From: Obrimoposthia wandeli
Lineage: Eukaryota
Assembly: GCA_977020255.1 (NCBI GenBank)
Contig: CDROCS010004055.1
Span: forward strand, 124,001-188,000
Direction of reading: 5' to 3'
Length of the DNA stretch: 64,000 nt
Shown here: one piece after another, positions 581 through 64,000 of the stretch
Position numbering within the stretch: position 1 is the stretch's first letter
Layout of the letters: every line of letters begins with the position of its first letter
Made by a program: the position numbers and the translations under genes
Notes under the pieces: model-generated
What the model was told of the DNA's origin: nothing
Databases searched by the model: none
Seen by the model: only the letters and a program-made list of their open reading frames with translations

Positions 581-1605
581 ATTATATTAGATGCTGATAT
601 CCAAGTTGGGTCTGAATAACAATGCCATTTAACAAAGTATTGTTTATGTTTACCTGTACCCTTAGATTTTAATATTTTTTGAATACGGAAAACGCTAGGT
701 TTATTTGATATTACTTGTAGTTCTTACTCGTAAAATTTACCGTGAACGATATTATTGTCAGCATCTTTAATAGTATAAATTATTGGATTACTCTTTTGAT
801 CAATTTTACTTATACAAAATATTTCATCGCTCCAATTCTGATCAAAGTTTTTAATAAATGGAGTAGAGCTAATTTTCGAAATTCGAACATATTCGTTTTT
901 CTTATATTTAGCTTTTTTAATTTTATCTTTTTTATTCCTGTTCATCCAAATGTCCATAGAGTTTTTATTAGTAACATCAACAGGTCTCATTCCCTTGAGA
1001 CCTCTATGTTCAGAGTGATTATATGCATGTATTATTTTAGGTAAAACTTGGATCCATTTTTTATTTCCTTCTTTTGTGAAATACTTTTTTATTCGATCTC
1101 TTAGAGTACGATTAAATCTTTCTACTACTGCTGCTTTGTATTGTGAAAACACAGAGTAGTGATTTATATTATTTTGTTTAAATAATGATTGAACTTGCTT
1201 ATTATAAAATTCTTTTCCTAAATCAGTTTGCACATTTTGTGGAATGTCCTCTTTCAATATTTCTTTAATGGCTCCAAGCATAGCTATTGAAGACTTTGCT
1301 TTAACTGGAATTGCACGAGCAAACCTGCTAAATACATCAATACATGTAAAAATATATCGATATCCCTTATTAATGGAAGAATATGGGATCATCTCCATCA
1401 AATCCATTTGCCATAAATTATTAGGACCGCTGGTTTTGTAAGCTCTAGTTGGAAACCTTCTTCTCATCGGCTTGTTCAGACTGTAGTCTAACTGATCGCT
1501 CAGCCATTTCTGCGTTTTCTTGTAATTTTGTTTTGTTCTTTTTGCTAATTTTGAAACTCCTGTGTAGCCAATTGGATCTTTTGGATTGAACCATATCTTC
1601 TCCAT
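577..1605 (-). pseudogene. Polinton DDE integrase with C-terminal chromodomain; premature TAA at 724-726
   Basis: WQMDL...TDLGKEF...VERFNRTL catalytic core. The frame continues past the stop as ELQV...KQYFVKWHCYSDPTW (chromodomain) to TGA at 577-579. Confidence 0.92.
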
Positions 1606-1691: not shown

Positions 1692-2021
1692 TTATGAACA
1701 TGTCGCAGCTATAATACTACTGATAATTGAAGCAACAACTGGAATAACAGCCCCTATGAAACCACCATTCTGTTTAAGAATAATATTTCGTTTCCTTTTT
1801 TTACTTTTTACATTAGCAATATCTAGAAGAGTTTTTCTATATTTCTTTAATATATTTTTCCGATTTCCAACTTTTACTCGACCCAAAACTATATTATACA
1901 AAACTTCCAATAAATCATCTACAACAAAGGATGGAAATGCTTTAAGAATAATCATTCTCTTATTAGAAGAGGCTTTGACTAAAGCTTTAAAATAGGGTAT
2001 GCTTCTTTGTATTTTCTTCAT
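1692..2021 (-). CDS. Basic virion protein with adenain-like cleavage site (QNGG/F) and C-terminal amphipathic/hydrophobic helix (pX/pVI-like)
   Basis: K/R-rich body ending KQNGGFIGAVIPVVASIISSIIAA. Homologue at 35169-35450. Confidence 0.7.
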   Translation of the reverse strand: MKKIQRSIPYFKALVKASSNKRMIILKAFPSFVVDDLLEVLYNIVLGRVKVGNRKNILKKYRKTLLDIANVKSKKRKRNIILKQNGGFIGAVIPVVASIISSIIAATCS

Positions 2022-2052
2022 TTTAATAAAAAAGGTTCAATTTAAATATTGT

Positions 2053-2193
2053 TTATATTCGAAGCCATTTAAGTTTTTTTTTATTTTTAACTACAGATTT
2101 GATTACTTTTTTCACTTCTTTTTTCTTAATGATTCTTTTTTTTGATTTCTTAGATTTTACTTTACGTTTTAATATCAACTTTGTAAAAGGCAT
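2053..2193 (-). CDS. 46-aa lysine-rich peptide (candidate DNA-condensing core protein), below ORF-track cutoff
   Basis: Manual translation MPFTKLILKRKVKSKKSKKRIIKKKEVKKVIKSVVKNKKKLKWLRI*. EVKKVIKSV matches EVKKFIKSV at 35021-35116. Confidence 0.6.
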   Translation of the reverse strand: MPFTKLILKRKVKSKKSKKRIIKKKEVKKVIKSVVKNKKKLKWLRI

Positions 2194-2200
2194 TGCGAAT

Positions 2201-2848
2201 TTATTTTTTATAATTGTTCTCTATTTGTTTATAAACAGTTACTCCCTTAGAATTAAATATGTATGTTAAAACACGTAAATCATCTGGGCAAGCTTGTGTA
2301 AAGTCAATAAATATATACCCATGTGCTTGTTTAGCAGCATCGTGGAATGAATCAACTAGAAAGTTCTTATTTTGAGGAAATGCCTGTCTGGCCACAAAAT
2401 CAACAACTGTTTGATCTCTAGGATTTTTAAATAAAACTAAGTAATGTACATTAAGATTTCTTGTTCTATGGTGACCTCCTTGGTGAAACAGATTTTGAGT
2501 GAAAAATATAACTGTAACTTCACGATGTCTTGCAATCTTTGTAAATAAATTATTAAAGTCCGATTCCTTGTTAGCCTCCTCATACAAATCATCAATTATT
2601 ATTACATCTTCTTTTTTCAATCTTTCACACCAATTTGCATCAAATCCTTCAATAAATTTTATACCCTTCAACTTGCAAACTTCTGTTTTGGTTAACCCGC
2701 TTTCCCCTCCTCCACCATGATGCCAATAAATATTTTTGAAACTAGATTTGAAAAGAGATTCATTTTGCAACAATTTACAGACGAAATGTGTCTTTCCACT
2801 TCCACTTGGGCCAACAATTTGAAATACAGCATTATTATTTAACTCCAT
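2201..2848 (-). CDS. A32/FtsK-family DNA packaging ATPase, apparently intact
   Basis: Walker A GPSGSGKT, Walker B IIIDD, TQNLFHQG...RTRNLNVHYLVLFKNPRD. Confidence 0.92.
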   Translation of the reverse strand: MELNNNAVFQIVGPSGSGKTHFVCKLLQNESLFKSSFKNIYWHHGGGGESGLTKTEVCKLKGIKFIEGFDANWCERLKKEDVIIIDDLYEEANKESDFNNLFTKIARHREVTVIFFTQNLFHQGGHHRTRNLNVHYLVLFKNPRDQTVVDFVARQAFPQNKNFLVDSFHDAAKQAHGYIFIDFTQACPDDLRVLTYIFNSKGVTVYKQIENNYKK

Positions 2849-2885
2849 TGCATATACTCTTTCATTTTTAATATTGTTTATATTA

Positions 2886-3158
2886 TCATAGAAGTTTCCT
2901 TATTGAAATGTACAATGTTAGAGCTGTTGTAGATGAAATACAAAAATTAATTAATGAATATTTGGCTATAATTTTATTTATTTGTGTACGATTTCTAAAT
3001 TCTCGAATAACGTGTGATCTAACCAATATTTCAATGTTATCTCTTGTTATATCATTATTTTTTAATTCTGATAAAATTTCTTTACCCCTAATTTTTCCAG
3101 AAAATATTTCATCGGCAAGCCGATCCACTTCGTTGTCTCTATTTATAGTATTATTCAT
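2886..3158 (-). CDS. Hypothetical 90-aa Polinton accessory protein with hydrophobic C-terminus
   Basis: Closed ORF packed between the TBP-like gene and the ATPase on the same strand; no family recognised. Confidence 0.45.
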   Translation of the reverse strand: MNNTINRDNEVDRLADEIFSGKIRGKEILSELKNNDITRDNIEILVRSHVIREFRNRTQINKIIAKYSLINFCISSTTALTLYISIRKLL

Positions 3159-3186
3159 TCAAAACAATAAGTTTAAACGGGTTTGT

Positions 3187-3685
3187 TTATAGAAAAGATA
3201 ACAAGATGTAATAAGATATATTTTCTAAAATCAAATCAACTATGTCTGGATAATCAAAATGTTTTATTCCCAATATCATAACTTTACCACTGGAAAATAT
3301 ATTTACACATAGCGGTTTAAACTTCAAATAACTGAGAGCAGGAAACATTTCTGGTTCAAACATGCATTCTTCTTTCATTTTCTCTGCAGTTTTAAAAAGA
3401 TTTATCTGTTTCCCGAGATTAGACGAAATCGTGATTGATTGTATTGCAGTGATTTGAATTCCAAATGGTAAATTGAACCCAAGCATTGGTATTTTGCATC
3501 CCATAACACGACAATTTCCTAAAGAATTCAATATGAAAATAAAATAAAAACTAACCTGTAGGAAAAATAACAACTGTGAAATTGTCAAACTTTTCTACAT
3601 ATTGTCTCGGCTTCCATTCATTGAATGGTAAGTACGAAACATCATCTTCTGTTCTACCTTTATAATTTATATTTACGAGTTTCAT
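3187..3685 (-). CDS. TATA-binding-protein-like gene, 2 exons (3685-3556, 3518-3187), 37-nt GT-AG intron, 153 aa
   Basis: Splicing joins VVIFPT-G-NCRVMG (TBP repeat 1) to FEPEMFPALSY...VNIFSSGKVMILG (TBP repeat 2), with no stops. Confidence 0.8.
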
Positions 3686-3896
3686 TAGACTGAAATTGTA
3701 TTCTGTAAAATCTTCTTTATATATGTCTGAACCTGCTTTTTTATTGCACGTTTCTTGTAATTATCTTGCAAACCTATTATAATTGGATGATATATTTCTT
3801 CCAATCAATTTTGATTTTTAATATAGATTTAGTCCTATCAAATTCAATGCTTTAGTTATATTAACCAATGAGATTCATGTCTTTGTTAGAAATTAG

Positions 3897-3903
3897 TATA
3901 AAA
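3897..3903 (+). promoter_or_regulatory. Candidate TATA box (TATAAAA) in the divergent intergenic region
   Basis: Lies ~30 nt upstream of ATG 3935. Weak evidence in an AT-rich context. Confidence 0.3.
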
Positions 3904-3934
3904 GAATGCGCCATTGGAGGACAAATCACAGTAA

Positions 3935-4411
3935 ATGCATTCATATCAAAGACAATTATCAACGATGGACGATAGCCAACGGGTATTAAGCGATGACGAA
4001 GAAATGTTTGAAGAATCGGATAAGGATATGTATGAAGAAGTGAAACAATATTTCAAATACAAAGTCAGATTCTTGAAGAAGGCTCAACTGATTGCTTTAG
4101 TAAATCCTGTGACAATTGAAAGAAGAAAGTTCAGCTACTATCTATCAGGTATTCAAAAACCTGATTTTCAATATCTTAAACAGAAAATAAAAAAGGCAGT
4201 TCCGAATTTTACTTTCAATAAGAACGAATTTTATATCCGAGGAGCCGATGAAGCATTTCTAGATGACTATGGAAGATATGTTGATATTGATGCGTTTCCG
4301 AAAAAGAAGCAATGGACTGTAACAATTCGACTTTATGGTTACAAGAAAGATGAAATGGGAACAAAGTTGCCTATGTGGAAAATTGAACGTGCTCATATTT
4401 CTATGTTTTAA
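3935..4411 (+). CDS. Orphan Polinton protein A (paralogue of next ORF)
   Basis: LKKAQLIALVNPVTI...WTVTIRLYGY...PMWKIERA aligns with the next ORF. Confidence 0.7.
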   Translation: MHSYQRQLSTMDDSQRVLSDDEEMFEESDKDMYEEVKQYFKYKVRFLKKAQLIALVNPVTIERRKFSYYLSGIQKPDFQYLKQKIKKAVPNFTFNKNEFYIRGADEAFLDDYGRYVDIDAFPKKKQWTVTIRLYGYKKDEMGTKLPMWKIERAHISMF

Positions 4412-4544
4412 CTTTTGTGTGTAATAAATTGTAATCGGTTTTACTATGTTTCTTTCATTTAATAATCAGTTTTATTTGTATCTTATTTGTATCTTATGTG
4501 TATTTTTTATAAACATTGTTTTTAATCAGTTTCCTTATTTTAGA

Positions 4545-4949
4545 ATGGATAAGAGATGTGTAGCAAATTTTTATTATCCAGAAAGAATTTCAAAAGAAAA
4601 ACTATGTAATATATTAAAGAGGCATCAAATTATACGAATTATGAATCCTGTGAAAATATCAAAAGTGGAGAAAAAATATCTCATCGAAATTTTAACAACA
4701 ACTGATTTTGATCAATTGAAAAATATTTTGGGATTTTACATTCCTGATTATGTATATGAAGGAAATTGTTTCGAGCTTGAAACTGATCCCAGTCTGGATT
4801 TTAAAGATGATCTAGGATATTTGATTGCTCCAATTCTAGATGAAGAACTATGGAATATCTCAATACGTCTCAATGGATATTTTGCTGATGACAGGAAAAT
4901 GCAGCCTCTCTGGACTTTGAGTGAAGCCAATATGTTGTTTTATGTTTAA
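4545..4949 (+). CDS. Orphan Polinton protein B (paralogue of previous ORF); likely start MDKRC at 4545
   Basis: LKRHQIIRIMNPVKI...WNISIRLNGY...PLWTLSEA. The upstream in-frame stretch is T-rich, UTR- or intron-like. Confidence 0.68.
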   Translation: MDKRCVANFYYPERISKEKLCNILKRHQIIRIMNPVKISKVEKKYLIEILTTTDFDQLKNILGFYIPDYVYEGNCFELETDPSLDFKDDLGYLIAPILDEELWNISIRLNGYFADDRKMQPLWTLSEANMLFYV

Positions 4950-22334: not shown

Positions 22335-23680
22335 AGTAGGTAGAAGGATGGAGTCTAGACCACTTGACCCCCCTAAAGGGTGTCACACCATAAGGATGTC
22401 TTGCCACACCATAAGAGTATATGTTGCCTCACCTCTGGTGAGGCACCATATACCCTTATGGTGTGGCAAGACATCCTTATGGTGTGACACCCTTTAGGGA
22501 GGAGGAGGGAGGGGAGGGGGAGGGGAGAGGGTGAGGGGGTCAAGTGATCTAGTCTCCACCCTTCTTTTGGCTAACTACTATGGTCGTCCATAATTCAAAG
22601 GGTCAAGTGGCTTAGTCTCCACCCTTCTTTTTGTGATATACCACTATGAAAGGGTCAAGTGGCTTAGTCTCCACCCTTCTTTTTGTGATCTAGTCTCCAC
22701 CCTTCTTTTTGTGGTCTAGTCTCCACCCTTCTTTTTGGCTAACCACTATGATCATCCATAATTCAAAGAGTCAAGTGGTCTAGTCTCCACCCTTCTTTGG
22801 TATACCACTATGATCGTCCATAATGAAAATTTATGCTAAAGTTCACTCTTATCAGTTAAGGAATGTGGTTTTTAACACACATACACTATTTTATGTGAAA
22901 TTTAGACTAAAGTTCACTCTTATCAGTTAAGGAATGTATTACGTAATCACACACATACTATTCTATGTGAAAATTTAGATCAAAGTTTTTTCCAGGCTTA
23001 CACATTTATAGAATTATGATAAAATTTCTTTAAATAACTTCAATTATATATTAAAATAAAAAAAATAAAATAAGAAAGAAGTCAGAGAATAATACAAAAT
23101 TAAACACATTTATTATGTAATTTCATAATATCATCTTCAAACTTAAGTGAATAACATTTACAAAGTAAGAAAGTCCATTCTTTATACATTCTTTTCGTTT
23201 CAACGACTAAGTTACAACGGAATTAATAGAAAAAGGAAAAAAAAAAACAACACTAAGTTTAACGCTATAAATGAAAATTAGTAAAAAAAAAAATATTAAT
23301 TTATTTGAATATTCGAATGTGAGTTTGAATAAATGAGAGTTAGAATGAATGTAAATGAATAAAATTATGCATGCAAGTATGAATGTCATTTACAAGTAAG
23401 AGTCTTAGCAAGTGAATGTAATTTTAAAATAAGAGTGTCGATAGTTTGATTGAATACAAGTATAATTTAGACTATAATTAAATTAAAATAAAGTTTTCGT
23501 TGAATAAATTATAGTTAGATTGAATGTAAATGAATACAAGTATGAATGCAAGTGAATGCTAGTATGAATTTCAATACAAGTAAGTGTCTTAGCAAGTGAA
23601 TGGAATTTAAAAATAAGAGTGTCGATAGTTTGATTGAATGCAAGTGTAATTTAGACTATAAGTAAATTAAAATAGAGTTT
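22335..23680. repeat. Left TIR (~1.05 kb unique plus ~1.7 inverted satellite-2 units)
   Basis: Reverse complement of ~31660-33073; differences are mostly homopolymer lengths and subterminal repeat number. Confidence 0.9.
22371..22499. other. 63-bp-stem hairpin, loop TCT, two stem mismatches
   Basis: 22371-22433 pairs with 22437-22499. Confidence 0.92.
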
Positions 23681-23690
23681 TTCCCGCCCA

Positions 23691-26600
23691 CTGCATATAA
23701 CATAAATTTCAAATATAAAGTACTATTAAGTTTATTATTTTGAATAGTAAATGTTTTTTCGAGTTATTTAATTTTGTTTACTAGACATTCGAAAATTTAC
23801 TTGTAAACTACAATATTTATTTGTTGTTGTATATATTTAGTTTAAAATGTTGTAAGTTATTACTTTAATATAATTTTCAACAAAAACTTCAAGTAGTTTA
23901 CTTATTAAACATAAGTTTAATGTTTTGTACAATAAATTGACTTGTAAACATAATTTATTTTGATATATTTTCAATTTAATATGTTGTAAGTTATTACTTT
24001 AATATAATTTACAACAAAAACTTCAAGTAATTTACTTGTAAACTACAATATTTATTTGTTGTTGTATATATTCAGTTTAAAATGTTGTAAGTTATTACTT
24101 TAATATAATTTTCAACAAAAACTTCAAGTAGTTTACTTATTAATCATAATATTAATGATTTGATCAATAAATTGACTTGTAAACATAATATAATTTGCAT
24201 ATTTTCAATTTAATATATTGTAAGTTATTACTATAATATTACATTACATAAAAAGTAATTGATAGTTTACTATCGTTTACAATAAATTGACTTGTAAACA
24301 TAATATAATTTGCATATTTTCAATTTAATATATTGTAAGTTATTACTATAATATTACATTACATAAAAAAGTAATTGATAGTTTACTATCGTTTACAATA
24401 AATTGACTTGTAAACATAATATATTTATGCATATATTCACTTTAATATGTTGTAAGTTATTACTTTATTATAATTTTCAACAAAAACTTCAAGTAGTTTA
24501 CTTATTAAACATAAGTTTAATGTTTTGTACAATAAATTGACTTGTAAACATAATTTATTTTGGTATATTTTCAATTTAATATGTTGTAAGTTATTACTTT
24601 AATATAATTTACAACAAAAACTTCAAGTAATTTACTTGTAAACTACAATATTTATTTGTTGTTGTATATATTCAGTTTAAAATGTTGTAAGTTAATACTT
24701 TAATATAATTTACAACCAAATCTTCAAGTACTTTACTTATTAATCATAATTTTAATGATTTGATCAATAAATTGACTTGTAAACATAATATAATTTGCAT
24801 ATTTTCAATTTAATATATTGTAAGTTAATACTGTAATATTTCATTACATAAAAAGTAATTCATAGTTTACTGTCGTTTACAATAAATTTACTTGTAAACA
24901 TAATATATTTATGCATATATTCACTTTAATATGTTGTAAGTTATTACTTTAATATAATTTTCAACAAAAACTTCAAGTAGTTTACTTATTAAACATAAGT
25001 TTAATGTTTTGTACAATAAATTGACTTGTAAACATAATTTATTTTGGTATATTTTCAATTTAATATGTTGTAAGTTATTACTTTTATATAATTTACAACA
25101 AAAACTTCAAGTAATTTACTTGTAAACTACAATATTTATTTGTTGTTGTATATATTCAGTTTAAAATGTTGTAAGTTATTACTTTAATATAATTTTCAAC
25201 AAAAACTTCAAGTAGTTTACTTATTAATCATAATATTAATGATTTGATCAATAAATTGACTTGTAAACATAATATAATTTGCATATTAAGAATTTAATAT
25301 AGTGTAAGTTATTACTGTAATATTACATACATAAAAAGTAATTGTAAGTTTACAATAAATTGACTTGTAAACATAATAATTTATAATTTTGTGTTATTAC
25401 TTTAATATAATTTTCAAAAAAACTTCAAGTAGTTTACCTATTAAAACTAAGTTTAATGGTTTTTACAATAAATTAACTTGTAAACATAATTTATTTTGGT
25501 ATATTTTCAATTTAATATGTTGTAAGTTATTACTTTAATATAATTTACAACAAAACTTCAAGTAATTTACTTGTAAACTACAATATTTATTTGTTGTTGT
25601 ATATATTTAGTTTAAAATGTTGTAAGTTATTACTTTAATATAATTTTCAACAAAAACTTCAAGTAGTTTACTTATTAAACATAAGTTTAATGTTTTGTAC
25701 AATAAATTGACTTGTAAACATAATTTATTTTGGTATATTTTCAATTTAATATGTCGTAAGTTATTACTTTAATATAATTTACAACAAAAACTTCAAGTAA
25801 TTTACTTGTAAACTACAATATTTATTTGTTGTTGTATATATTCAGTTTAAAATGTTGTAAGTTATTACTTTAATATAATTTACAACCAAAACTTCAAGTA
25901 ATTTACTTATTAATCATAATTTTAATGATTTGATAAATAAATTGACTTGTAAATATAATATAATTTGCATATTTTCAATTTAATATATTGTAAGTTAATA
26001 CTGTAATATTTCATTACATAAAAAGTAATTCATAGTTTACTGTCGTTTACTATAAATTTACTTGTAAACATAATATATTTATGCATATATTCACTTTAAT
26101 ACGTTTTAAGTTATTAGAATTTGTGTTCTTGTATTCAATGATTAACTTTTATTAAACTATTATATAACATTGAAATGTTTAAAATACTTGAGCAAAATAA
26201 ATTAATATAATAAAAGGATTTTAAAATGTATTTTAGTTTAAGATAAAAAATGAGGTTATACGAAGTTAATCTAGTTTAAAAAACAATTAATACCAAAATT
26301 ACTTACCAGAATGTGTAAACAACAGTAAACTATTATAACCTACAATAAAGAAACTATTGAATTATAATATAACCAATCGTATTCAGTAAGTGATAAATGT
26401 ACAAATCATTAATATTATGATTATTAAGTAAACTATTCGAAATGTTGTAAAAATCAAGAAATAAGTTAAAAATATTCATAGTTGAACAACTCATAACTGA
26501 AATTTACATTAGTTTAGTATTATATCAATCATATACCTATACGTTTTAAATAAAGTTACTTTTAAAAAAAAAAACCATTGATTTTAAGTATTTCATGTTA

Positions 26601-26921
26601 AACATTGGTTTTAAAGAAGAATTTAGCATTGCAATATCATAAATTAGATTTAATTTAACTATTTTTTATTTATTATTTGATAATTAACTTTTATATCGCT
26701 TTTAATTATTGAAATATCTACAAATTTTGTACAAGTACACAAGTTCGAATAACTTACAACATATTAAACTGAAAATATGCAACAAACAAAAAAATAATAT
26801 TATGTTTAGAAGTAAATTTTCGAATGTCTAGTAAACAAAATTAAATAACTCGAAAAAACATTTACTATTCGAAATAATAAACTTAATAGTACTTTATATT
26901 TGAAATTTATGTTATATACAG
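23691..26921. repeat. Nested inner inverted-repeat module (~170-bp arms) enclosing satellite 1
   Basis: 23691-~23855 is the reverse complement of ~26745-26921. Confidence 0.8.
23793..26115. repeat. Satellite 1: ~100-130-bp related subunits (core ACTTGTAAAC...TTGTAAGTTATTACT), ~20 copies with mixed higher-order blocks
   Basis: The AAACTACAATATTTATTTGTTG marker recurs at ~235-600-bp spacing. Confidence 0.88.
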
Positions 26922-27699
26922 CTACTAACTTTATAATTAAAATATTTTTATAGTTTAAGGTTAAAATCACTTGATAAAAACCACAATAATGTGGTAAAGA
27001 AATATTATTTAACATATAAAAGGAATTTTTGAAGAAATAAATTGAATATTCATATTATATTAATAAGACAATGGCAAAAATATCAAGTAATTAAAAAAAA
27101 ATTGTTTGTTGAGTTAATTTACTAAATTTGTATATATAAAAACAGTTTCGAATAGTTAAAAAGAGAAACGAATAATGATAATTTCAATTATATTTCCGAA
27201 TATAATTGTATAATCAAGTTATTTAAAAATAAAGAATTTAAATTTAACTAATTTTTTTAAAAATATTTCAATTAAGGAATTTTATCAAACGAGATAAGAC
27301 TTTTTAATTATTCAAATTCATTAATATATTTACTAATTTTCATTCATAATTGACATTCGTACTTGCATATTGCGTATTCTTTCTTACTTGTACTTGTAAC
27401 AGCATTCAATCATACTTGCATTCATTTACATTCAATTTAACTGTAATTTATTCAAACTATCTTTCAATTACATTCAAATACATTAATATTTTACTAATTT
27501 TCATTCATACTGTCAAATTTGGTGTTGTTTTCTATTAATCTTGCCATAACTTAGTCGTTCTAATTTTTTAACATACTTCAATATCACTGTTTCCTATAGT
27601 TGCTTACTTGTTATTAATCTAACTGTAACTTAACATAACTTTATTCATACTAAAACTCTATTTTAATTTATTTCTAGTCTAAATTACACTCTCATTCAA

Positions 27700-30600
27700 T
27701 CAAACTATCGACACTCTTATTTTCACTGTCACTCATTCATAGTTTTATATTTACTTGCTGAAACTCTTACTCGTATTTGCATTCACTTGAATGTATACTT
27801 GTATTCATTTACATTCAATCTAACTATAATTTATTCTACGAAAACTCTATTTTAATTTACTTATAGTCTAAATTACACTTGCATTCAATCAAACTATCGA
27901 CACTCTTATTTTATAAATTACATTCACTTGCTAAGACACTTACTTGTATTGAAATTCATACTATCATTCACTTGCATTCAATCTAACTATAATTTATTCA
28001 ACGAAAACTCTATTTAATTTACTTATAGTCTAAATTACACTTGCATTCAATCAAACTATCGACACTCTTATTTTTAAATTACATTCACTTGCTAAGACAC
28101 TTACTTGTATTGAAATTCATACTAGCATTCACTTGCATTCATACTTGCATTCAATCTAACTATAATTTATTCAACGAAAACTCTATTTTAATTTACTTAT
28201 AGTCTAAATTACACTTGCATTCAATCAAACTATCGACACTCTTATTTTATAAATTACATTCACTTACTAAGACACTTACTTGTATTGAAATTCATACTAT
28301 CATTCACTTGCATTCATACTTGCATTCAATCTAACTATAATTTATTCAACGAAAACTCTATTTTAATTTACTTATAGTCTAAATTACACTTGCATTCAAT
28401 CAAACTATCGACACTCTTATTTTTTAAATTACATTCACTTGCTAAGACACTTACTTGTATTGAAATTCATACTAACATTCACTTGCATTCATACTTGCTT
28501 TCAATCTAACTATAATTTATTCAACGAAAACTCTATTTTAATTTACTTATAGTCTAAATTACACTTGCATTCAATCAAACTATCGACACTCTTTTTTTTT
28601 TTTAAATTACATTCACTTGCTAAGATTCTTACTTGTAAATGACATTCATACTAGCATTCACTTGCATTCATACTTGTATTCATTTACATTCAATCTAACT
28701 ATAATTTATTCAACGAAAACTTTATTTTAATTTAATTATAGTCTAAATTACACTTGCATTCAATCAAACTATCGACACTCTTATTTTTTAAATTACATTC
28801 ACTTGCTAAGACACTTACTTGTATTGAAATTCATACTAACATTCACTTGCATTCATACTTGCATTCAATCTAACTATAATTTATTCAACGAAAACTCTAT
28901 TTTAATTTACTTATAGTCTAAATTACACTTGCATTCAATCAAACTATCGACACTCTTTTTTTTTTTAAATTACATTCACTTGCTAAGATTCTTACTTGTA
29001 AATGACATTCATACTAGCATTCACTTGCATTCATACTTGTATTCATTTACATTCAATCTAACTATAATTTATTCAACGAAAACTTTATTTTAATTTAATT
29101 ATAGTCTAAATTATACTTGTATTCAATCAAACTATCGACACTCTTATTTAAAATTACATTCACTTGCTAAGACACTTACTTGTATTGAAATTCATACTAG
29201 CATTCACTTGCATTCATACTTGCATTCAATCTAACTATAATTTATTCAACGAAAACTCTATTTTAATTTACTTATAGTCTAAATTACACTTGCATTCAAT
29301 CAAACTATCGACACTCTTATTTTTAAATTACATTCACTTGCTAAGATACTTACTTGTATTGAAATTCATACTAGCATTCACTTGCATTCATACTTGCATT
29401 CAATCTAACTATAATTTATTCAACGAAAACTCTATTTTAATTTACTTATAGTCTAAATTACACTTGCATTCAATCAAACTATCGACACTCTTATTTTTAA
29501 ATTACATTCACTTGCTAAGACACTTACTTGTATTGAAATTCATACTAGCATTCACTTGCATTCATACTTGTATTCAATCTAACTATAATTTATTCAATGA
29601 AAACTCTATTTTAATTTACTTATAGTCTAAATTACACTTGCATTCAATCAAACTATCGACACTCTTATTTTTTAAATTACATTCACTTGCTAAGACACTT
29701 ACTTGTATTGAAATTCATACTAACATTCACTTGCATTCATACTTGCATTCAATCTAACTATAATTTATTCAACGAAAACTCTATTTTAATTTACTTATAG
29801 TCTAAATTACACTTGCATTCAATCAAACTATCGACACTCTTATTTTTTAAATTACATTCACTTGCTAAGAAAACTTCTTACATTACACTTGCATTCAAAT
29901 ATCGACATTTTAATTTACATACTAAATTACACTTGCATTCACTTGCATTCATACTTGTATTCATTTACATTCAATCTAACTATAATTTATTCAACGAAAA
30001 CTTTATTTTAATTTAATTATAGTCTAAATTATACTTGTATTCAATCAAACTATCGACACTCTTATTTAAAATTACATTCACTTGCTAAGACACTTACTTG
30101 TATTGAAATTCATACTAGCATTCACTTGCATTCATACTTGCATTCAATCTAACTATAATTTATTCAACGAAAACTCTATTTTAATTTACTTATAGTCTAA
30201 ATTACACTTGCATTCAATCAAACTATCGACACTCTTATTTTTAAATTACATTCACTTGCTAAGATACTTACTTGTATTGAAATTCATACTAGCATTCACT
30301 TGCATTCATACTTGCATTCAATCTAACTATAATTTATTCAATGAAAACTCTATTTTAATTTACTTATAGTCTAAATTACACTTGCATTCAATCAAACTAT
30401 CGACACTCTTATTTTTAAATTACATTCACTTGCTAAGATACTTACTTGTATTGAAATTCATACTAACATTCACTTGCATTCATACTTGCATTCAATCTAA
30501 CTATAATTTATTCAACGAAAACTCTATTTTAATTTACTTATAGTCTAAATTACACTTGCATTCAATCAAACTATCGACACTCTTTTTTTTTTAAAATTAC

Positions 30601-31960
30601 ATTCACTTGCTAAGATTCTTACTTGTAAATGACATTCATACTAGCATTCACTTGCATTCATACTTGTATTCATTTACATTCAATCTAACTATAATTTATT
30701 CAACGAAAACTTTATTTTAATTTAATTATAGTCTAAATTATACTTGTATTCAATCTAACTATACACTCTTATGCATTACATTGAAATTCATACTAGCATT
30801 CACTTGCACATACTCTTTAATTCAACGAAAACTCTATTTTAATTTACTTATAGTCTAAATTACACTTGCATTCAAGACACTTACTTGCTAAGATTGTATT
30901 GAAATTCATACTAACATTCACTTGCATTCATACTTGCATTCAATCTAACTATAATTTATTCAACGAAAACTCTATTTTAATTTACTTATAGTCTCTAAAT
31001 TACACTTGCATACTCAATCAAACTATCGACACTCTAAATATTTTTCAAAACATTCACTTGCTATTACATTCATTTTCACTTGCATTCATACTTGCATTCA
31101 ACTATAATTTATTCAACGTCTATTTTAATTTAATACTTATAGTCTAAATTACACTTGCATTCAATCAAACTATCGACACTCTTTTTTTAAAATTACATTC
31201 ACTTGCTAAGATTCACTTGCATTCATACTAGCATTCACTTGCATTCATACTTGTATTCATTTACATTCAATCTAACTATAATTTATTCAACGAAAACTTT
31301 ATTTTAATTTAATTATAGTCTAAATTATACTTGTATTCAATCAAACTATCGACACTCTTATTTTAAAATTACATTCACTTGCTAAGACTCTTACTTGTAT
31401 TGAAATTCATACTAGCATTCACTTGCATTCATACTTGCATTCAATCTAACTATAATTTATTCAACGAAAACTCTATTTTAATTTACTTATAGTCTAAATT
31501 ACACTTGCATTCAATCAAACTATCGACACTCTTATTTTTAAATTACATTCACTTGCTAAGATACTTACTTGTATTGAAATTCATACTAGCATTCACTTGC
31601 ATTCATACTTGCATTCAATCTAACTATAATTTATTCAACGAAAACTCTATTTTAATTTACTTATAGTCTAAATTACACTTGCATTCAATCAAACTATCGA
31701 CACTCTTATTTTTATTTTTTTTAATTACATTCACTTGCTAAGACTCTTACTTGTAAATGACATTCATACTAGCATTCACTTGCATTCATACTTGTATTCA
31801 TTTACATTCAATCTAACTATAATTTATTCAACGAAAACTTTATTTTAATTTAATTATAGTCTAAATTATACTTGTATTCAATCAAACTATCGACACTCTT
31901 ATTTTAAAATTACATTCACTTGCTAAGACTCTTACTTGTAAATGACATTCATACTTGCAT
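27700..31960. repeat. Satellite 2: ~174-bp unit (longer ~186-bp variant), ~24 copies
   Basis: CAATCTAACT recurs at 29227, 29401 and 29575. Confidence 0.92.
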
Positions 31961-33073
31961 GCATAATTTTATTCATTTACATTCATTCTAACTCTCATTT
32001 ATTCAAACTCACATTCGAATATTCAAATAAATTAATATTTTTTTTACTAATTTTCATTTATAGCGTTAAACTTAGTGTTTTTTTTTTTTTCCTTTTTCTA
32101 TTAATTCCGTTGTAACTTAGTCGTTGAAACGAAAAGAATGTATAAAGAATGGACTTTCTTACTTTGTAAATGTTATTCACTTAAGTTTGAAGATGATATT
32201 ATGAAATTACATAATAAATGTGTTTAATTTTGTATTATTCTCTGACTTCTTTCTTATTTTATTTTTTTTATTTTAATATATAATTGAAGTTATTTAAAGA
32301 AATTTTATCATAATTCTATAAATGTGTAAGCCTGGAAAAAACTTTGATCTAAATTTTCACATAGAATAGTATGTGTGTGATTACGTAATACATTCCTTAA
32401 CTGATAAGAGTGAACTTTAGTCTAAATTTCACATAAAATAGTGTATGTGTGTTAAAAACCACATTCCTTAACTGATAAGAGTGAACTTTAGCATAAATTT
32501 TCATTATGGACGATCATAGTGGTATACCAAAGAAGGGTGGAGACTAGACCACTTGACTCTTTGAATTATGGATGATCATAGTGGTTAGCCAAAAAGAAGG
32601 GTGGAGACTAGATCACAAAAAGAAGGGTGGAGACTAAGCCACTTGACCCTTTCATAGTGGTATATCACAAAAAGAAGGGTGGAGACTAAGCCACTTGACC
32701 CTTTCATAGTGGTATATCACAAAAAGAAGGGTGGAAACTAAGCCACTTGACCCTTTCATAGTGGTATATCACAAAAAGAAGGGTGGAGACTAAGCCACTT
32801 GACCCTTTGAATTATGGACGACCATAGTAGTTAGCCAAAAGAAGGGTGGAGACTAGATCACTTGACCCCCTCACCCTCTCCCCTCCCCCTCCCCTCCCTC
32901 CTCCTCCCTAAAGGGTGTCACACCATAAGGATGTCTTGCCACACCATAAGAGTATATGTTGCCTCACCTCTGGGTGAGGCAACATATACTCTTATGGTGT
33001 GGCAAGACATCCTTATGGTGTGACACCCTTTAGGGGGGGGTCAAGTGGTCTAGACTCCATCCTTCTACCTACT
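31960..33073. repeat. Right TIR unique part, with 52-bp subterminal repeats and perfect 63-bp hairpin (32906-33035)
   Basis: Inverted copy of 22335-23385. Confidence 0.9.
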
Positions 33074-33789: not shown

Positions 33790-34312
33790 GGGCCCAAGAC
33801 GATATTTTTGGGTTACTGCGAAACTACGATACCAACGAGGAGTGCGCAAAAATACTATCTGGTATTATCGACAAACTTGTAATGTCAAAGAACAACACTA
33901 GTCTAGAGGAAGCAGCGGATTCGTATGCCAAAAATAAACCTTTTATCAACGATCGAACAGATTAGTTAGGAAATTTGAATAATGGTGGTCAGATTTCGAA
34001 ACTTTGACATGGACAGGAGGAGAAATCGTACCTGATAACCGACCTGCGGTCGGTTACGGGTAATGGGCGAAAAGGTGGCCCCGCTACAATCAAGACTGCC
34101 GAGGAGCCCAAAACTGTACCCGGCGATGACGTAAGAGTACTGAAATAGTACGCGGATCTAAGTTCCAATGACGAAAGAAGAATGGTGCACGACAAGGCTG
34201 ATAATCGTCTCATTCTGAGATACAATAAGAAGAAGAAACTTGCAAAGAAAGAAGAGAAAAGGAGCTTTTCTGGGAGAAGAGTTTTTTATTGTTTCTTAGT
34301 GGATGTATTATA
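33790..34312 (+). pseudogene. Degraded unknown ORF next to the left terminus
   Basis: Long frame (DDIFGLLRNYDTNEEC...KKKKLAKKEEKRS) broken by three stops; no family recognised. Confidence 0.35.
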
Positions 34313-34373
34313 ATAAAAAATTTTAAATAGTTTTGTCTTATAAACATTATCCCGAAAATCTAATATTTTTAAT

Positions 34374-35024
34374 ATGAACTTAAAAAATAATTCAGTTTTT
34401 CAGATTGTAGGTCCTAGTGGCAGTGGGAAACCTCATTTTATATGTAAGTTACTGCAAAATAATAAATACTTTACTTTTAAGTTTAATAAGATATATTGGC
34501 ATCAGGGAGGAGATGGAGAAGCCGGTTTAACCAGTAAAGAGTTTAAGAAAATTAAAAATATAAAAGTCATTAATGGATTTGATGATAATTGGTCTGAGCG
34601 ATTACAACGACATGATGTTATTGTTATTGATGATTTATATCAAGAAGCAAATAAAGAGAGTGATTAAAATAATTTATTCACTAAAATAGCACGACATCGT
34701 GACGTAACTGTTGTTTTCACAACACAAAATCTATTTCATCAAGGAGGGAACCATAGAACTCGTAATTTAAATGTACATTACCTTGTTCTCTTCAAGAATC
34801 CACGTGATCAGACGGTTGTTGATTTTGTTTCAAGACAAGCTTACCCGAATAATAGAAATTTCCTAATTGATTCATTTCAAGATGCAACTACTATTCCTCA
34901 TGGATACATTTTTATTGATTTTACTCAAGATTGTCCTGATGACTTTAGAGTTAGAACTGATATATTCAATTCATCAGGAATTACCGTCTATAAACAAACA
35001 AAGAAACCAGTTTCTCGAAGATGA
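34374..35024 (+). pseudogene. Packaging ATPase, premature TAA at 34665-34667
   Basis: GPSGSGKP and VIVIDD; collinear with 2201-2848. Confidence 0.9.
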
Positions 35025-35116
35025 ATTTTAAAAAGGAAACTGTTAAACCTGAAGTTAAAAAATTTATTAAATCAGTTTTAAGTGCAAGGAAAAATGGTTG
35101 CTCAAAAATCAAATAA
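35021..35116 (+). CDS. 31-aa basic peptide (homologue of 2053-2193)
   Basis: MNFKKETVKPEVKKFIKSVLSARKNGCSKIK*; ATGA overlap with the ATPase stop. Confidence 0.5.
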   Translation: MNFKKETVKPEVKKFIKSVLSARKNGCSKIK

Positions 35117-35168
35117 GAAAAGAACTGTTGTTTAAAAATCTAGGAGTATTGCTTATTTCAATTCTATC

Positions 35169-35450
35169 ATGCGTGCACCTGCTATTCGCCACCCAGCTAT
35201 TCTTAAATCATTCCCTACTTTTGTAATTGATGATTTACTTAATATGATACAGAAAATAGTTTCTGGTAAAATAATTGTCAAAGCTAGCATGAATCGGCAT
35301 AAGAAACCTCTACTTGCTTTGTTTCACACCAAAACACGAATCGGTAAACGTAAGTTGCTTTATAAGCAAAGTGGTGTATTTTTTGAATTTCTCGTACCAA
35401 TTATTAGCTCAATAGTTGATGCACGTGCTAGTAGACTAATAAAACGATGA
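35169..35450 (+). pseudogene. pX/pVI-like basic virion protein homologue
   Basis: FPTFVIDDLL...KQSGVFFEFLVPIISSIV aligns with 1692-2021. Confidence 0.65.
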
Positions 35451-35489
35451 TTATAAACATAAATTCGAATCAATAATATGAATTTATAT

Positions 35490-35735
35490 ATGGGATCACT
35501 TCCATCTATTCCTAAATTCAATATAAAAATCAAATCGTCTTGTTGTAATGGAGAAAATATGGTTCGATCCAAGTCACCCCGTTGGTTACACAGGGGTTTC
35601 AAAATTAGCAAAAGAACCAAAGAAGGGGGAAAATGTAAGTCAAGTGTGGTTGAGAAATCAATTAGCTTACAGCTTAAACAAACCAATGAAACGTCGGTTC
35701 TCAACGAGATCATACAAAACGAGCGGGCCAAATGA
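35490..35735 (+). CDS. Myristoylation-motif ORF overlapping the integrase start
   Basis: MGSLPSIPKFNIKIKSSCCNG, in the same position and frame relative to INT as in element 1. Confidence 0.5.
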   Translation: MGSLPSIPKFNIKIKSSCCNGENMVRSKSPRWLHRGFKISKRTKEGGKCKSSVVEKSISLQLKQTNETSVLNEIIQNERAK

Positions 35736-36573
35736 TTTATGGCAAGCACATTTGATGGAAATGATTCCATATGCGAGTATTAACGGTGGAAATCGATATA
35801 TTTTAACTTGTATTGATGTCTTTAGCAGATTCGAGCGAGCTATTCCATTAAAGTCTAAGTCTGGTACTGATGTTTTAGCCGCAATGAAGCTTTTGATTAA
35901 AGAAATAAAACCAAGAAATTTCCAAACGGATAATGGAAAGGAGTTTTATAATAAACATGTTAGTGCACTATTGAAAAAACATAATATTAATCATTACTCA
36001 GTATTTTCCCAATATAAATCTGCTTTATTTGAACGTTTTAATCGAACATTGAGATATCGATTGAAAATGTATTTCACAAAGCAGGGAAATAAGTCCTGGG
36101 TCACTGTTTTACCTCAAATAATACATGCATACAATCATAGCGAACACTCACCATTAGATCGAAAGAGACCTGTTGATGTTACAGATGAGAATGCTATGGA
36201 AATTTGGCAACGCCGTAACCAAAGTCAAGTTGTAAAGAAACCCAAGTATAAAGTTTGTGATTATGTACGTATTTCTCGAATTAGTACTATTCCTTTTATA
36301 AAGAATTTCAAAGAGAATTGGAGCGATGAAGTATTTCGTATAACTAAAATTGATAATAAACATGTGCCGGTAATGTATTTCATTGAGGATGAGAGCAATA
36401 ATGTAATCACAGGTAAATTTTATCACAAGGAATTACAAGTCTTGCCAGAGAAACCAAATGTATATAGAATTCAAGAAATCTTAGAGACAAAAGGTAGAGG
36501 AAAGCATAAACAATATCGTGTTAAGTGGCATGGATAAACTGAACCTAGTTGGATATTAGTTTCTCAAATATAA
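35548..36573 (+). pseudogene. Integrase plus chromodomain; first catalytic Asp replaced (WQAHL), stop at 36535-36537
   Basis: Collinear with the element-1 integrase; frame continues TEPSWI after the stop. Confidence 0.9.
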
Positions 36574-36581
36574 TTAACTCA

Positions 36582-37594
36582 ATGTATGTTGTATTACCAA
36601 GTAATGGTTCGCCATTAACTCAGCCGAATAATACTGCTAATAGTTTTAGTATTGATTATCAAAGTTCAATCAACTTGCCTGGTGCTTGGAAAGCTGCTCT
36701 TACGGATTTTTCTTTCAATTACTCTCCTCTATCTATTCAAAGTGAAACTGAGATTGAATATATTACTCATCAAGAAGCTGATAAAGTAACTGATGTGACT
36801 TTACTATTTGATAAGGGTTAAATGGATTTGGCTCGTATTAAGGCAGGAGATGATTTCACAATCTTTTTAAATAAAGAGAATCGAATTCAAATTATAGGAA
36901 AAAGGGATTATTTTGAAATTGTTTTTAGTGATGAGATTGTTGCACAACAATATGGATTTCCAACTAACGTTGGAAAAGGAAAGCATGTGCTTTCGGGAAT
37001 TATAGATAAACATGTCAAGTATCCGATAATTACATTCAAGATAATAAGCAGATTCACTAAACGCGAGAGGAAAATATATTCAGTTCCCAATGATTTTCTT
37101 TTTTCCATAGTGGAAGCATGTGTAAACATGTTAAAACAGTGTTACCAAATGTATTTGAAAACTTTAAACTAGTTAATAAATTGATTCATTTCAAATTGAA
37201 ATCAAATATTGATAAAGTTGTCATGGATAAATCATTAGCCTCAATTATCGGTTTTTATGAAAATGAATTTGAAAATTAAAATGAGGTTTTCAAAGCAAAG
37301 ATTATTCCTAAAATAACTAATGCATATAATCAAATTTATATTTACACGAACATTACTGAACCAATATTCGTAGGAGGAAGTAAACTTTCCTTAATAAAAG
37401 CAATTTGGGTTCAACAGGAAAAACACAAGTATGGTGATGTTATACATATTCCAATTGAAAATCCACTGTATATTCCAGTGAGTTCTTCTTCTATAAACAA
37501 TATTGAAGTTAATATACGTAATGATTCTGGAAGATTAATTATATTTGCTTACGGAGCTAAAACAAGTTTAACGGTTCATTTTCGTAAATTATGA
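36582..37594 (+). pseudogene. Minor capsid (penton-like) protein, frameshifted
   Basis: N-terminal YVVLPSN; C-terminal IYIYTNITEPIFVG...NPLYIPV...IEVNIRNDSG...TVHFRKL. Confidence 0.82.
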
Positions 37595-37956
37595 ATGATT
37601 CAAGTATAATCGATGCGTATAGTAATCCAATGCAAGGAGGTGATTTGCCTTATTTTGTGGGAAAACAGTATGGATCAGGATGGCTGAAGGTTTTTGGTCG
37701 TTTTGCTTTCCCACTACTCAAGCAACTCGGGAAATCTATTGCTAATGTTGGATCAAAATACTTGTCTGGGGATGAGAAATTTCTTCCCACACTAAAGGAT
37801 GCAGCCTTGGATCAGGTCAATGAAATTTCGTCAAGTCTAACTGAATTTTTGAAAAAGAAAACTCAAAAGGGAAATGGTTATAAACGTAAGAAAACATCTA
37901 AAGCATCGGGTATAAACAAACGTTTGAAACTAAGTGGAACAATTTTTAAGCAATGA
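37591..37956 (+). CDS. Small virion protein with QxGxG motifs and amphipathic helix (pVI-like candidate)
   Basis: QYGSGWLKVFGRFAFPLLKQLGKSIANVG...QKGNGYKRKK. Confidence 0.65.
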   Translation: MNDSSIIDAYSNPMQGGDLPYFVGKQYGSGWLKVFGRFAFPLLKQLGKSIANVGSKYLSGDEKFLPTLKDAALDQVNEISSSLTEFLKKKTQKGNGYKRKKTSKASGINKRLKLSGTIFKQ

Positions 37957-39146
37957 GTTGTGCTAAAACTGAATTGTGTATATTCGATAAACCTATACCC
38001 CAGGTTGTGGTTGATAGTGCTAGTTTTGAAGAAAATTTTCCCGACAAATACGGTTAACGGGACATCTTCTCCGGATTTAGAATTCAATATAAATGGATCC
38101 AATACTCAATATCTTGATTTGAATAATAGTTTATTTCTCGTTAAATTGAAAGTTACAAAGGAAGGAGGTGATTTGGATGATGATTTGGATATCAAATCAG
38201 CTAATTTCATGTTGCATACTATTTTCAAGGATGGGATTCTCAGTCTCAATAATGTGAAAGTTGAGGGAAATAATACTAGTTACACTCATAAAGCAATGAC
38301 TGAAACATTACTGAATTACGGTAATGATACGAAATTAATCTTGATGCAATTGGGTTTGATGATGATGAAAAAAGAAGAACTGCTTCGATTGCAAAGTCTA
38401 AAGTATTGTCACTTCGTGGGAGTCTCCATTTGTATTTATTTAAGCAACCAAAGTATCTTTTACCCGGTGTAAGTGCACATATTCGAATGAAGATAAATCC
38501 AGTAGGTTTTAGTGTTGTTTGCGCCGATACTATTAAAGCAGCAATTGAGATTACGGAAGCAAAACTGCTGGTTCGTAGAGTAAAGGTGGAACCATCTGTA
38601 CTCGTTGCACATCGAATGGGGTTGGAGAAGCAAAATGCATGTTATCCTATTATAAAAACTAATCTTGTTTCTCATGCTATCCCTACGGGAGCACTATCTT
38701 ATTACAAGGATCAGATTTTTGGTAATATGCAACTTCCAAACTTTGTTTTAATTGCTTTCCAAAACACTTCTACCTATGGAGGTGAGTCTAAAAATGAGGT
38801 TTCTCAATTTCGACTCATGCATGTGAGTTCAATTAAACTTGCACGAAATATTGATTATCAAGAATCTTATACGAATGACTTTGAAAATAATGATTATGTG
38901 TTTTCTTATGTGCAATCTTTAATTAGAAATCTTGGTCGTTTGGATAAGGATGCTAATATTGGAATTTCCATGACTGATTTCAAGGACAAGTATACACTGT
39001 TAACATTTGTTATCTCTCCTGATTTTGATATAAATCAAGCTCAAATCCTTAAACAGGGAAATTTGAAAGTAGAAATCAAGTTTTCAAAATCACTTGAACA
39101 TCCTGCTAATATTATAATCTATGGAGTATTTGATTCTGAGGTTCAA
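37953..39146 (+). pseudogene. Major capsid protein (double jelly-roll), frameshifted, C-terminus lost
   Basis: MSCAKTEL...LEFNINGSNTQYLDL...LRGSLHLYLFKQPKYLLPGV...GNLKVEIKFSKSL. Confidence 0.88.
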
Positions 39147-39461
39147 AGCGGAAGAAAACTACTAGGTTCGCGTTTCAATGGAGTCCACAGTCTTGATCAT
39201 ATTCCCTCTTTGACTCGTTTAAGTGGATATGTAATCAATACACATTCATCTAATCTGCGTGGCGAACAATGGATTGCAATACATGTTAAAGAAAATGAAA
39301 TCTTTGTTTTTGACCCCTTTGGGATATATTACCCTTCTAAATTAGTATCTACAGTACTTGACTCTGGAAAGAAAGTACATTTTAGTAAGAAACATTATCA
39401 AAATGTTTTAACACAGTCATGTGGACAACTCTGTCTGCTCTGGTTAAAGCATAAACAATAG
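39147..39461 (+). pseudogene. Adenain-like cysteine protease, fused in frame to the MCP remnant; catalytic His replaced (GEQW)
   Basis: FNGVHSLD...VINTH...GEQWIA...FDPFG...QNVLTQSCGQLC. Confidence 0.85.
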
Positions 39462-39498
39462 ATATAAACAAATTCAAATAAAATTATTGCTATAAAAA

Positions 39499-40010
39499 AT
39501 GTCTGTTTATTTTCTTGATTTTGAAGCTTTTATTGATAACAATACTGAGTTTGTAATAAAGGAACTATGTATAATGGATTTGGATGCAATCTTCTATCCT
39601 AAACATTATGTTTTTAAAATGCAACCTATATGGAGTATGATGAATAGAAAATCAAGAAAAATAAATAGATATCTCATCAAGCATTACCATCGACTAAAAC
39701 TAGTTTATAGTAATAGTTATTTCAAGATATAGGATATAACTCAGGAAATAAACGTTGTTGTGATCTATCCAAATCAATTTTCTTTGTTTTGGATGAATAT
39801 AATGGAGCTAAAATAAAGACAATCAGTAAATATTTTCCTGAAATATTTAGACTGATAAATTACTCGAAAACATTAAAACAATTAAATCCATCAAATATCA
39901 ATTGTCCATATATCAAACATGGAGAGCATTGTGCATACAAGAAATGCTTTGCAGCTAGTTTGGATTATTTAAATATAAATGAAAAATCAACTACTCACAT
40001 TAATCAGTGA
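39499..40010 (+). pseudogene. DEDD-fold (DnaQ/Maelstrom-like) nuclease, frameshifted
   Basis: FLDFEAF...FVIKEL...HYHRL...CPYIKHGEHCAY. Confidence 0.65.
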
Positions 40011-40153
40011 ACTAATTTCCATTCTGATTTGTTTTAAATGAATCTGGTTGGTTTAAATAATGAATGATTTTGATTGGCTTAATACTAGCTCGAAAGTAGT
40101 ATATAAGCAAGCATCAATCAACAAATAACTATCTATTATAAACGAAATTGAAA

Positions 40154-53990: not shown

Positions 53991-54521
53991 TAATTCAAAT
54001 AGAAACCCCAACATAATTATGACGATCAGAAATATCGAATACGTTCTTCATGATATAAAAAAAAAGTGTTTGAAAAAATTATACGAAAATATTTTAAATA
54101 AATTTATGAAGTATATCGAAAATAAGAAGCTGAGGTCAATTAATTATTTCTTTCTGTAAATTTTCATATTTTTAGGAAGATATTATACAATTTTTGATAA
54201 AATTAAAAATGTTGAAAATAAAGCAAACAATACAAGCAATATAATACTGACTATAAAATACTGAACAACATATAAAAGTTGAAAACGGGAAAACGACTGA
54301 AAGACCGTTAACAAATATTTTTGTTGTTGAAATCATGAAAATGCTTATAATTGAAAGTAATCAAAAATCTTTAAAAAAAGGAGATAAACACATTTAGCGA
54401 TACGGCTCTCAACGTAATCCAGAATGGTCCCTTCGCAATATGGGTTTTTGTGGCTGTTAGGGATATGATGATTTAGTGTAGATCAATTGGATTGATGTTG
54501 AATACAGAATACAGTTAAATT

Positions 54522-63500: not shown

Positions 63501-64000
63501 ATATCGTCATAATAAAAAATCAATGTTTGAACAAACCGGACATTTTCAGCGACTGAATGCGTTTTTATAATGTAATTTAAATAAATGTATCCCCTTTTCT
63601 TGTCTTTTCAACAACTTGTAACAGAATCCGTACACTCCATATTGGATTCAATCACTCATGACACGATGCAGCTTATGAGATTGTTCAGTAATCACAAAAT
63701 CTTCATAATATTTTAGAAAAAATACTTCACTACTTTTATTATGATATATATGAGATGTTCTGTAAATTGCAACGATTTTCCAAGAAAGTGTTTTTTGTTC
63801 TATGTTTGTAAAAAAAAAGATTGGTGTCATGAAAAGTCAATAGTATCAGAGCAATCGTATGCAGATATAAGCAAACGAAATTAATCAGCAGGGTGTCGAA
63901 ATCCAAAATAGCTGAAGATCTCGGGAAATTGCTATTAGACAAGCTGGGTCAAAATCCGTACATTACTCTTAGAGATATGGCTCAATTTATCGGGTCTCGC
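54522..64000 (+). repeat. Tandem array of ~1,145-bp units (>8 copies, runs off window), each a dead IS630/Tc1-like transposase gene
   Basis: Marker GTGTCGAAATCC at 54729, 55874, 57019, ~58168, ~59308, 60457, ~61609, ~62749, ~63894. Unit encodes HTH-like NPYITLRD, then DE, HDNV and SPY...NPI motifs with shared stops. Confidence 0.93.

Follow-up and report, generated by a model that had tools for sequence, protein, structure and literature searches.

Does a Polinton carry a promoter-recognition factor of its own? The question is raised by a 64,000-nt stretch of DNA from Obrimoposthia wandeli (hereafter the window; contig CDROCS010004055.1, positions 124,001 to 188,000), in which a gene resembling the TATA-binding protein (TBP) lies among the genes of such an element. 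Polintons bring capsid genes but no RNA polymerase of their own, and to our knowledge no mechanism for the activation of the structural genes has been described. Viral TBPs are familiar from large DNA viruses and herpesviruses; what the window adds is a probably spliced form with an intron site common to several lineages.

Genomic setting of the TBP-like gene

Near one element end the gene order is integrase, basic core-like protein, A32 ATPase, a 90-aa ORF, TBP and two divergent paralogous ORFs. The first four are encoded on the reverse strand: the rve integrase at 724..1605 (Pfam rve, E 4.6e-13), the 109-aa basic core-like protein at 1692..2021 (a weak adenovirus mu/pX match, Pfam Adeno_PX E 0.01, below the cut-off), the A32-type packaging ATPase at 2201..2848 (Pfam Pox_A32, E 2.5e-6) and the 90-aa open reading frame at 2886..3158. 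The element possesses the rve integrase and the A32 packaging ATPase expected of a Polinton/Maverick, the setting assigned to the TBP-like gene in an earlier note made from the sequence alone. ORFs resembling PolB, protease and capsid genes continue in the adjoining genomic stretch (L032). The labels capsid, penton, PZ and DEDD used throughout are ones we presume from gene order and motifs, and the Pfam matches to DNA_pol_B_2 (E 4.9e-6) and, weakly, Peptidase_C5 (E 0.064) were scored on the second element of the window only. The right end of the element lies near 5372 (loose read ends); a search for terminal inverted repeats found no match to it in 20 kb upstream, and this copy may be interrupted. 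A Pfam scan of 13 window ORFs detected neither a viral TFIIB nor a viral RNA polymerase.

The forward-strand gene at 3935..4411, divergent from the TBP-like gene, encodes a likely single-stranded-DNA-binding protein (SSB) of the T7 gp2.5/Enc34 type, as judged from its predicted fold: the top 8 Foldseek rows are SSBs (T7 gp2.5, Enc34, ASFV CP312R) with E values of 0.02-0.12. It is followed by an SSB-like paralogue at 4446..4949 (+) whose product is 24% identical. We know of no SSB among the standard Polinton genes. Metagenomic Polinton relatives of the SSB-like gene appear to possess an upstream exon.

Further features were observed in and around the element. A tiny reverse-strand frame at ~1606-1663, which starts with MG, ends with a CC motif and overlaps the integrase start, has similar counterparts in several metagenomic relatives and possibly encodes a small myristoylated protein. 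Judged by eye, accessory genes in metagenomic relatives (L041 222-719; L038 4008-4319; L077 1710-2171) resemble genes for a ubiquitin-conjugating enzyme, a dual-specificity phosphatase and a RING protein. Just past the far end of the element, a retroelement-like stretch (L031 3-5048, reverse strand) contains ORFs that resemble gag and one of 600 aa that resembles an envelope gene. Elsewhere, the window contains a foldback-like element at 22437-32968, whose long and almost perfect inverted arms (557 nt, 100%) enclose arrays of ~174-nt and 101-235-nt repeats, and a tandem array at ~54500-64000 with at least 8 copies of ~1145-nt units. A second, degraded Polinton of another family (~70% DNA identity) occupies ~34170-42600 on the forward strand and is cut off just left of its ATPase.

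A short intron interrupts the TBP-like gene

The TBP-like gene runs on the reverse strand from an ATG at 3685 to the end of a TAA at 3187. Exon 1 (3556..3685) comprises 130 nt, equivalent to 43 codons plus 1 nt, and encodes most of the shortened N-lobe. A phase-1 GT-AG intron of 37 nt (3519..3555) falls within the Gly codon following the N-lobe Phe. Exon 2 (3187..3518, 332 nt) encodes the last N-lobe strand, a short linker replacing helix H2 and the complete C-lobe with its FEPE stirrup. Exon coordinates and open frame confirm the proposal of the earlier note that removing the 37-nt intron yields a stop-free 153-aa protein, as the spliced frame has 153 codons plus a stop. Without splicing, an in-frame TAG inside the intron terminates the frame after 44 codons. 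Three other GT-AG pairs (four in total) also leave the frame open; the 3555-3519 pair alone gives the register VIFPT-G-NCRVMG, matching IIFRS-G-NCRVMG of intronless homologues, and it has the best donor. Aligned with these homologues, the two exons meet without gap or overlap, which fixes the junction. Exon 2 matches Pfam TBP (PF00352) with 44.3 bits and an E value of 1.6e-11 (curated cut-off 22.9) as well as 35 TBP sequences in the PDB. Exon 1 by itself has no Pfam TBP match, yet reaches E 3e-12 with the TBP-like family profile.

Within the window family, the intron was found in 30/30 and 26/26 alignable copies, with a length of 35-40 nt behind an exon 1 of mostly 130 nt, and GT-AG borders are present in 24/26 and 25/27 alignable copies. 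Four of the 12 best-supported indels across 5.6 kb hit the 37-nt intron, a figure inflated by homopolymers. The second Polinton family of the genome (family B) has an intron of 38-39 nt at the same site and in the same phase (the pattern matched 7/12 stretches), and the metagenomic element L077 has a GT-AG intron of 40 nt in the same Gly codon. The gene is continuous across this site in 41/60 metagenomic loci, the other 19 being partial or outside the search pattern. Two host TBP introns measure 47 and 48 nt. Splicing of the GT-AG intron is likely, being well supported by the intronless homologues, the recurring site, the variation in intron length and the short introns of the host. Four read runs (one sample, kind unspecified) gave an even, very high depth over genes and intergenic DNA, as DNA would give; the joint at 3519-3555 is not in the best 15 of ~1130 read joints, which in DNA-like reads says nothing on expression. 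In four copies (L108, L111, L112, L126) a 3' end longer by 2 nt carries the TBP frame into the downstream 90-aa ORF, and other genome copies acquire a 12-13-aa tail.

Predicted fold: a TBP in miniature

The fold was predicted for the homologue P0001 rather than for the window protein, to which it is 54% identical across exon 2. The P0001 model (pLDDT 96) is a two-lobed TBP saddle that aligns with a Z-score of 13.5 and an rmsd of 2.5 Å over 149 residues of both lobes (VIA); the next non-TBP entry reaches Z 6.8. Foldseek returned 44 matches to P0001, and every listed row at E<=0.001 is a TBP. By way of this homologue, a small TBP with two lobes is predicted for the window product as well; the fold match sought in the earlier note was obtained. 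The two TBP repeats described there stand at the level of the fold; the first repeat, however, is ~25 residues shorter and without helix H2. The C-lobe of the P0001 model is complete, H1 is a single turn and there is no long helix at H2. The linker from N-lobe to C-lobe measures 19 aa in the window protein, 17-22 aa in 99/110 family rows and 32-33 aa in cellular TBPs. The window protein lacks the N-lobe H2 with basic patch by which eukaryotic TFIID-type TBPs are recognized.

TBPs are characterized by four phenylalanines that intercalate into the TATA box, conventionally given in yeast numbering. The window protein has three of them, the number given in the earlier note, and these are kept in 110, 110 and 111 of 111 family rows. 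At the fourth position, the internal-repeat register places Lys and MAFFT places Tyr; the family mostly has Lys there. The stirrup E-P-E is kept in 106, 111 and 111 of 111 rows. The DNA-facing strands of the family display the invariant polar residues N6, R47, M49, S72, R107 and N117. At one position the window family has Ser, in all 8 copies compared, where 109/111 rows carry Arg.

Two stirrup glutamates bind TFIIB and the basic patch of H2 binds TFIIA, TAF1, Mot1 and Brf1, according to the accessible parts of PMC7221094, in which viral TBPs are generally argued to have lost the host-TFIIB signature and Polintons are not mentioned. A decoy, sequestering host TFIIB or the regulators of TBP and having no activity on DNA, would explain why the acidic stirrup is nearly invariant while one Phe is lost. 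We regard such a decoy as quite improbable, as it would have dispensed with the very patch that binds the regulators, its DNA-facing residues would still form the most conserved columns of the family and the promoter word described below would be left unexplained. Conserved DNA face, deleted H2 and matching promoter word together fit a promoter-recognition factor better than a decoy, the two roles between which the earlier note had left the choice.

The family is widespread in Polintons and under purifying selection

The 1.35-Gb genome contains at least 150 matches to the gene, all 150/150 scored being 95-100% identical. From 30 copies picked by promoter similarity, 26 aligned fully, and the spliced frame is open in 14/26 and broken in 12/26. 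The family profile recovers 295 clusters at E<=1e-10, mostly of 144-160 aa; at 50% identity, 43 representatives reach E<=1e-30. Polinton genes lie beside the TBP-like gene in 43/60 metagenomic loci, near-complete elements among them, and the 17 loci without such genes are 1-3 kb long. These loci display two gene orders, SSB-TBP-ATPase and capsid-protease-exonuclease-TBP. The TBP-like gene is a regular gene of a whole Polinton/Maverick clade. A phage collection yielded no match to the family. Two matches to the family pattern in viral_contigs were rejected as ordinary NCLDV TBPs.

The SSB-like family adjoins the TBP gene in 20/60 metagenomic loci and a DEDD-type exonuclease-like gene does so in 16/60, a neighborhood that would suit a minor-groove bending protein serving a replication origin, the termini or packaging. 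This role is improbable for a protein that keeps the TFIIB stirrup and whose candidate motif stands at promoter distance from start codons.

Among the 30 listed pairs, which are non-independent, the 27 with dS>=0.1 have dN/dS values of 0.11-0.45 (median 0.19) and the three closest have 0.47-1.14; dN/dS is thus about 0.2. Within the genome (12 copies), shared variants are 9 synonymous and 9 non-synonymous and singletons 5 and 41, corresponding to pN/pS of 0.25 for shared variants vs 2.0 for singletons (Fisher p 0.0016). The gene is under purifying selection.

In a quick maximum-likelihood tree of 87 rows, a branch of 0.96 with an SH-aLRT of 100 separates the family from the TBPs of the host, plants and archaea, and the window family does not group with the host TBP/TRF paralogues. 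A wider set of small TBP-like proteins (P0194-P0265, 150-220 aa) has the C-lobe signature of the family and groups with it in the tree. The family is an old virus-borne lineage rather than a recent capture. In the host itself, two TBP genes lie side by side in divergent orientation, and there are also a pair of near-identical TRF-like genes without introns and one more divergent TBP paralogue (L095-L100; contigs C238, C60, C1092, C968). Together with the short introns, this gene set would suit a flatworm.

Copy number, linkage to Polinton genes, selection and the separate branch exclude the one-off host pseudogene by which the earlier note would have been overturned. A captured host TBP pseudogene, or a dead gene with an unspliced intron, would account for the broken frames in nearly half of the aligned copies; its probability is nevertheless very small in the face of the tree, the purifying selection, an intron site common to three lineages and host introns that are likewise short.

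A TATAAAC word precedes packaging and structural genes

The divergent TBP-like and SSB-like genes are each preceded by a putative canonical TATA box: TATATAAA (3716..3723, reverse strand) lies 38 nt upstream of the TBP-like start codon, and TATAAAAG (3897..3904, forward strand), with CCAAT upstream, lies before the SSB-like gene. TATA-like boxes had been noticed before 3935 and 40154, and both were retrieved, the former as TATAAAAG and the latter as TATATAAG at 40100 and TATAAACG at 40137. A different word, TATAAACA, occurs on the reverse strand at 3184..3191, where it overlaps the TBP stop codon 33 nt ahead of the 90-aa ORF, at 2875..2882, 34 nt ahead of the packaging ATPase, and at 2050..2057, 36 nt ahead of the 109-aa basic core-like gene.

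In the window element TATAAAC[AG] stands 33-42 nt ahead of the 90-aa ORF, ATPase, core, capsid and exonuclease genes; it was observed 6 times in 5.4 kb vs 0.86 expected, and 0/200 simulations were as high. Upstream windows of metagenomic elements, de-duplicated yet related to each other, have the motif on the sense strand ahead of ATPase (11/13), core (6/9), capsid (5/7) and exonuclease (5/11) genes and 0 times on the reverse strand; in 10 of the 11 ATPase cases it lies 32-37 nt from the ATG. Elsewhere it is patchy (integrase 2/9, penton-like 2/6, protease 2/5, PZ-like 1/6). Upstream of TBP genes, TATAAAC[AG] was found in 0/46 windows, TATAWAW in 22/46 and CCAAT in 13/46. The SSB upstream windows (motif 0/17) are mostly intron sequence and were therefore left out as evidence. 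TATAAAC[AG] occurs 11 times in 37 kb of AT-rich flanking DNA vs 11 times in 17 kb of element, often overlaps an upstream TAA or sits in coding sequence, and resembles a poly(A) signal. A promoter role is favoured by its tight spacing to the downstream ATG.

The second Polinton of the window contains the motif 8 times and has no TBP gene. We did not accept it as a control lacking TBP: its left side is truncated, and in 9/12 of its sibling copies a TBP gene with the same intron site lies ~0.4-2 kb upstream of the ATPase. A search of viral_contigs with ATPase and capsid queries found no TBP-less Polinton to serve as a control.

The N-lobe of TBP contacts the 3' half of the TATA box, where TATAAAC[AG] departs from the consensus. 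Instead of being specific for TATAAAC, the viral protein might be a general TATA-binding booster or competitor on viral and host TATA boxes, which as a Mot1-immune protein may shut off host or early promoters while host TBP reads TATAAAC[AG]. In favour of this reading, TATAAAC is one base off the consensus, a kind of variant for which there are TBP structures (PDB title 1qn3, 'C(-25)' variant), and three Phe and the stirrup are kept. We nonetheless consider it unlikely, in that the invariant polar substitutions on the DNA face fit a changed specificity and the motif is absent from the TBP gene's own promoter.

Comparison with known TBPs

Cellular and archaeal TBPs (PF00352; PDB 7egb_P, 1ytb, 1mp9) share with the window family the two-lobed saddle, the E-P-E stirrup and three Phe, namely those of both S4-S5 turns and the one of the C-lobe FP. 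The window family differs in its size (~150 vs ~180 aa), the missing H2 and reduced H1 of the N-lobe, the loss of the fourth Phe, the polar invariant DNA-face residues, an identity of ~20-25% and its separate tree branch.

The beta- and gammaherpesvirus mimics (KSHV ORF24, EBV BcRF1, HCMV UL87) provide a functional parallel: as described in the accessible parts of PMC12529657 and PMC8360532, in these viruses, which have no RNA polymerase of their own, a variant TATA word of late genes is read by a TBP fold whose interface contains Phe and is rich in polar residues. EBV BcRF1 is a weak fold match to the P0001 model (E 3.7e-3). The mimics are, however, large multidomain proteins that belong to a six-protein complex, contact Pol II directly and, according to PMC12529657, are incompatible with TFIIB, whereas the window protein is a bare 153-aa TBP core that keeps the TFIIB stirrup; its candidate word is TATAAAC where theirs is TATT. 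The window protein does not belong to the herpesvirus TBP mimic family.

NCLDV TBPs are likewise virus-encoded TBP folds (27 BFVD matches at E<=0.001) and, from what is accessible of PMC7221094, have likewise lost the N-lobe regulator signature; unlike the window protein, they have a diverged stirrup and accompany a viral TFIIB and RNA polymerase. Two NCLDV TBPs that we examined (L033, L034) are, in contrast to the window protein, full-length and host-like.

Starrett et al. 2021 (PMC8502044; preprint 10.1101/697771) also point to a TBP-like gene, carried by a mid-size virus or a related element whose PolB is adintovirus-like; in the accessible text, 'TBP' is a label in the legend of Fig. 5 on MELD and mid-size viruses, in the section on non-animal datasets. 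There it is a legend label alone, which may denote this family or another, and the accessible text analyses neither structure nor family nor promoters. Neither 'TBP' nor 'TATA' occurs in one of the supplementary files. Our literature searches turned up no account of the family, of its loss of H2 or of the TATAAAC word; figures, preprint supplements and subscription papers may show more.

A candidate late-promoter recognition factor

Taken from sequence and model, the TBP-like product is probably the element's own late-promoter recognition factor, expressed early and recruiting host Pol II in the manner of the herpesvirus mimics. Early in the cycle, the divergent promoter of the TBP and SSB genes would be read by host TBP and Pol II at its ordinary TATA boxes. 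The viral TBP would bind TATAAAC[AG] ~35 nt ahead of the packaging, core and capsid genes via its remodelled DNA-facing surface, and host TFIIB and Pol II would be recruited via the retained acidic stirrup. As helix H2 is absent, the viral TBP would escape Mot1/BTAF1, TAF1, TFIIA and Brf1. More tentatively, and with a chance we place somewhat short of even, the Polinton clade may run a herpesvirus-like early/late cascade with one regulator-proof mini-TBP of 150 aa, which would combine a rebuilt N-lobe, a private TATAAAC box and host TFIIB.

The window protein represents a natural TBP deletion experiment, in which the DNA saddle and the TFIIB stirrup are kept and a whole regulatory helix is dropped, and it bears on the minimal requirements of a TBP and on orthogonal transcription tools. 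With a dedicated TBP and a defined promoter word, the activation of Polinton structural genes becomes directly testable. If the proposed cascade is true, it would constitute an orthogonal Pol II promoter system of minimal size and provide the switch by which an integrated Polinton becomes a virus that makes particles.
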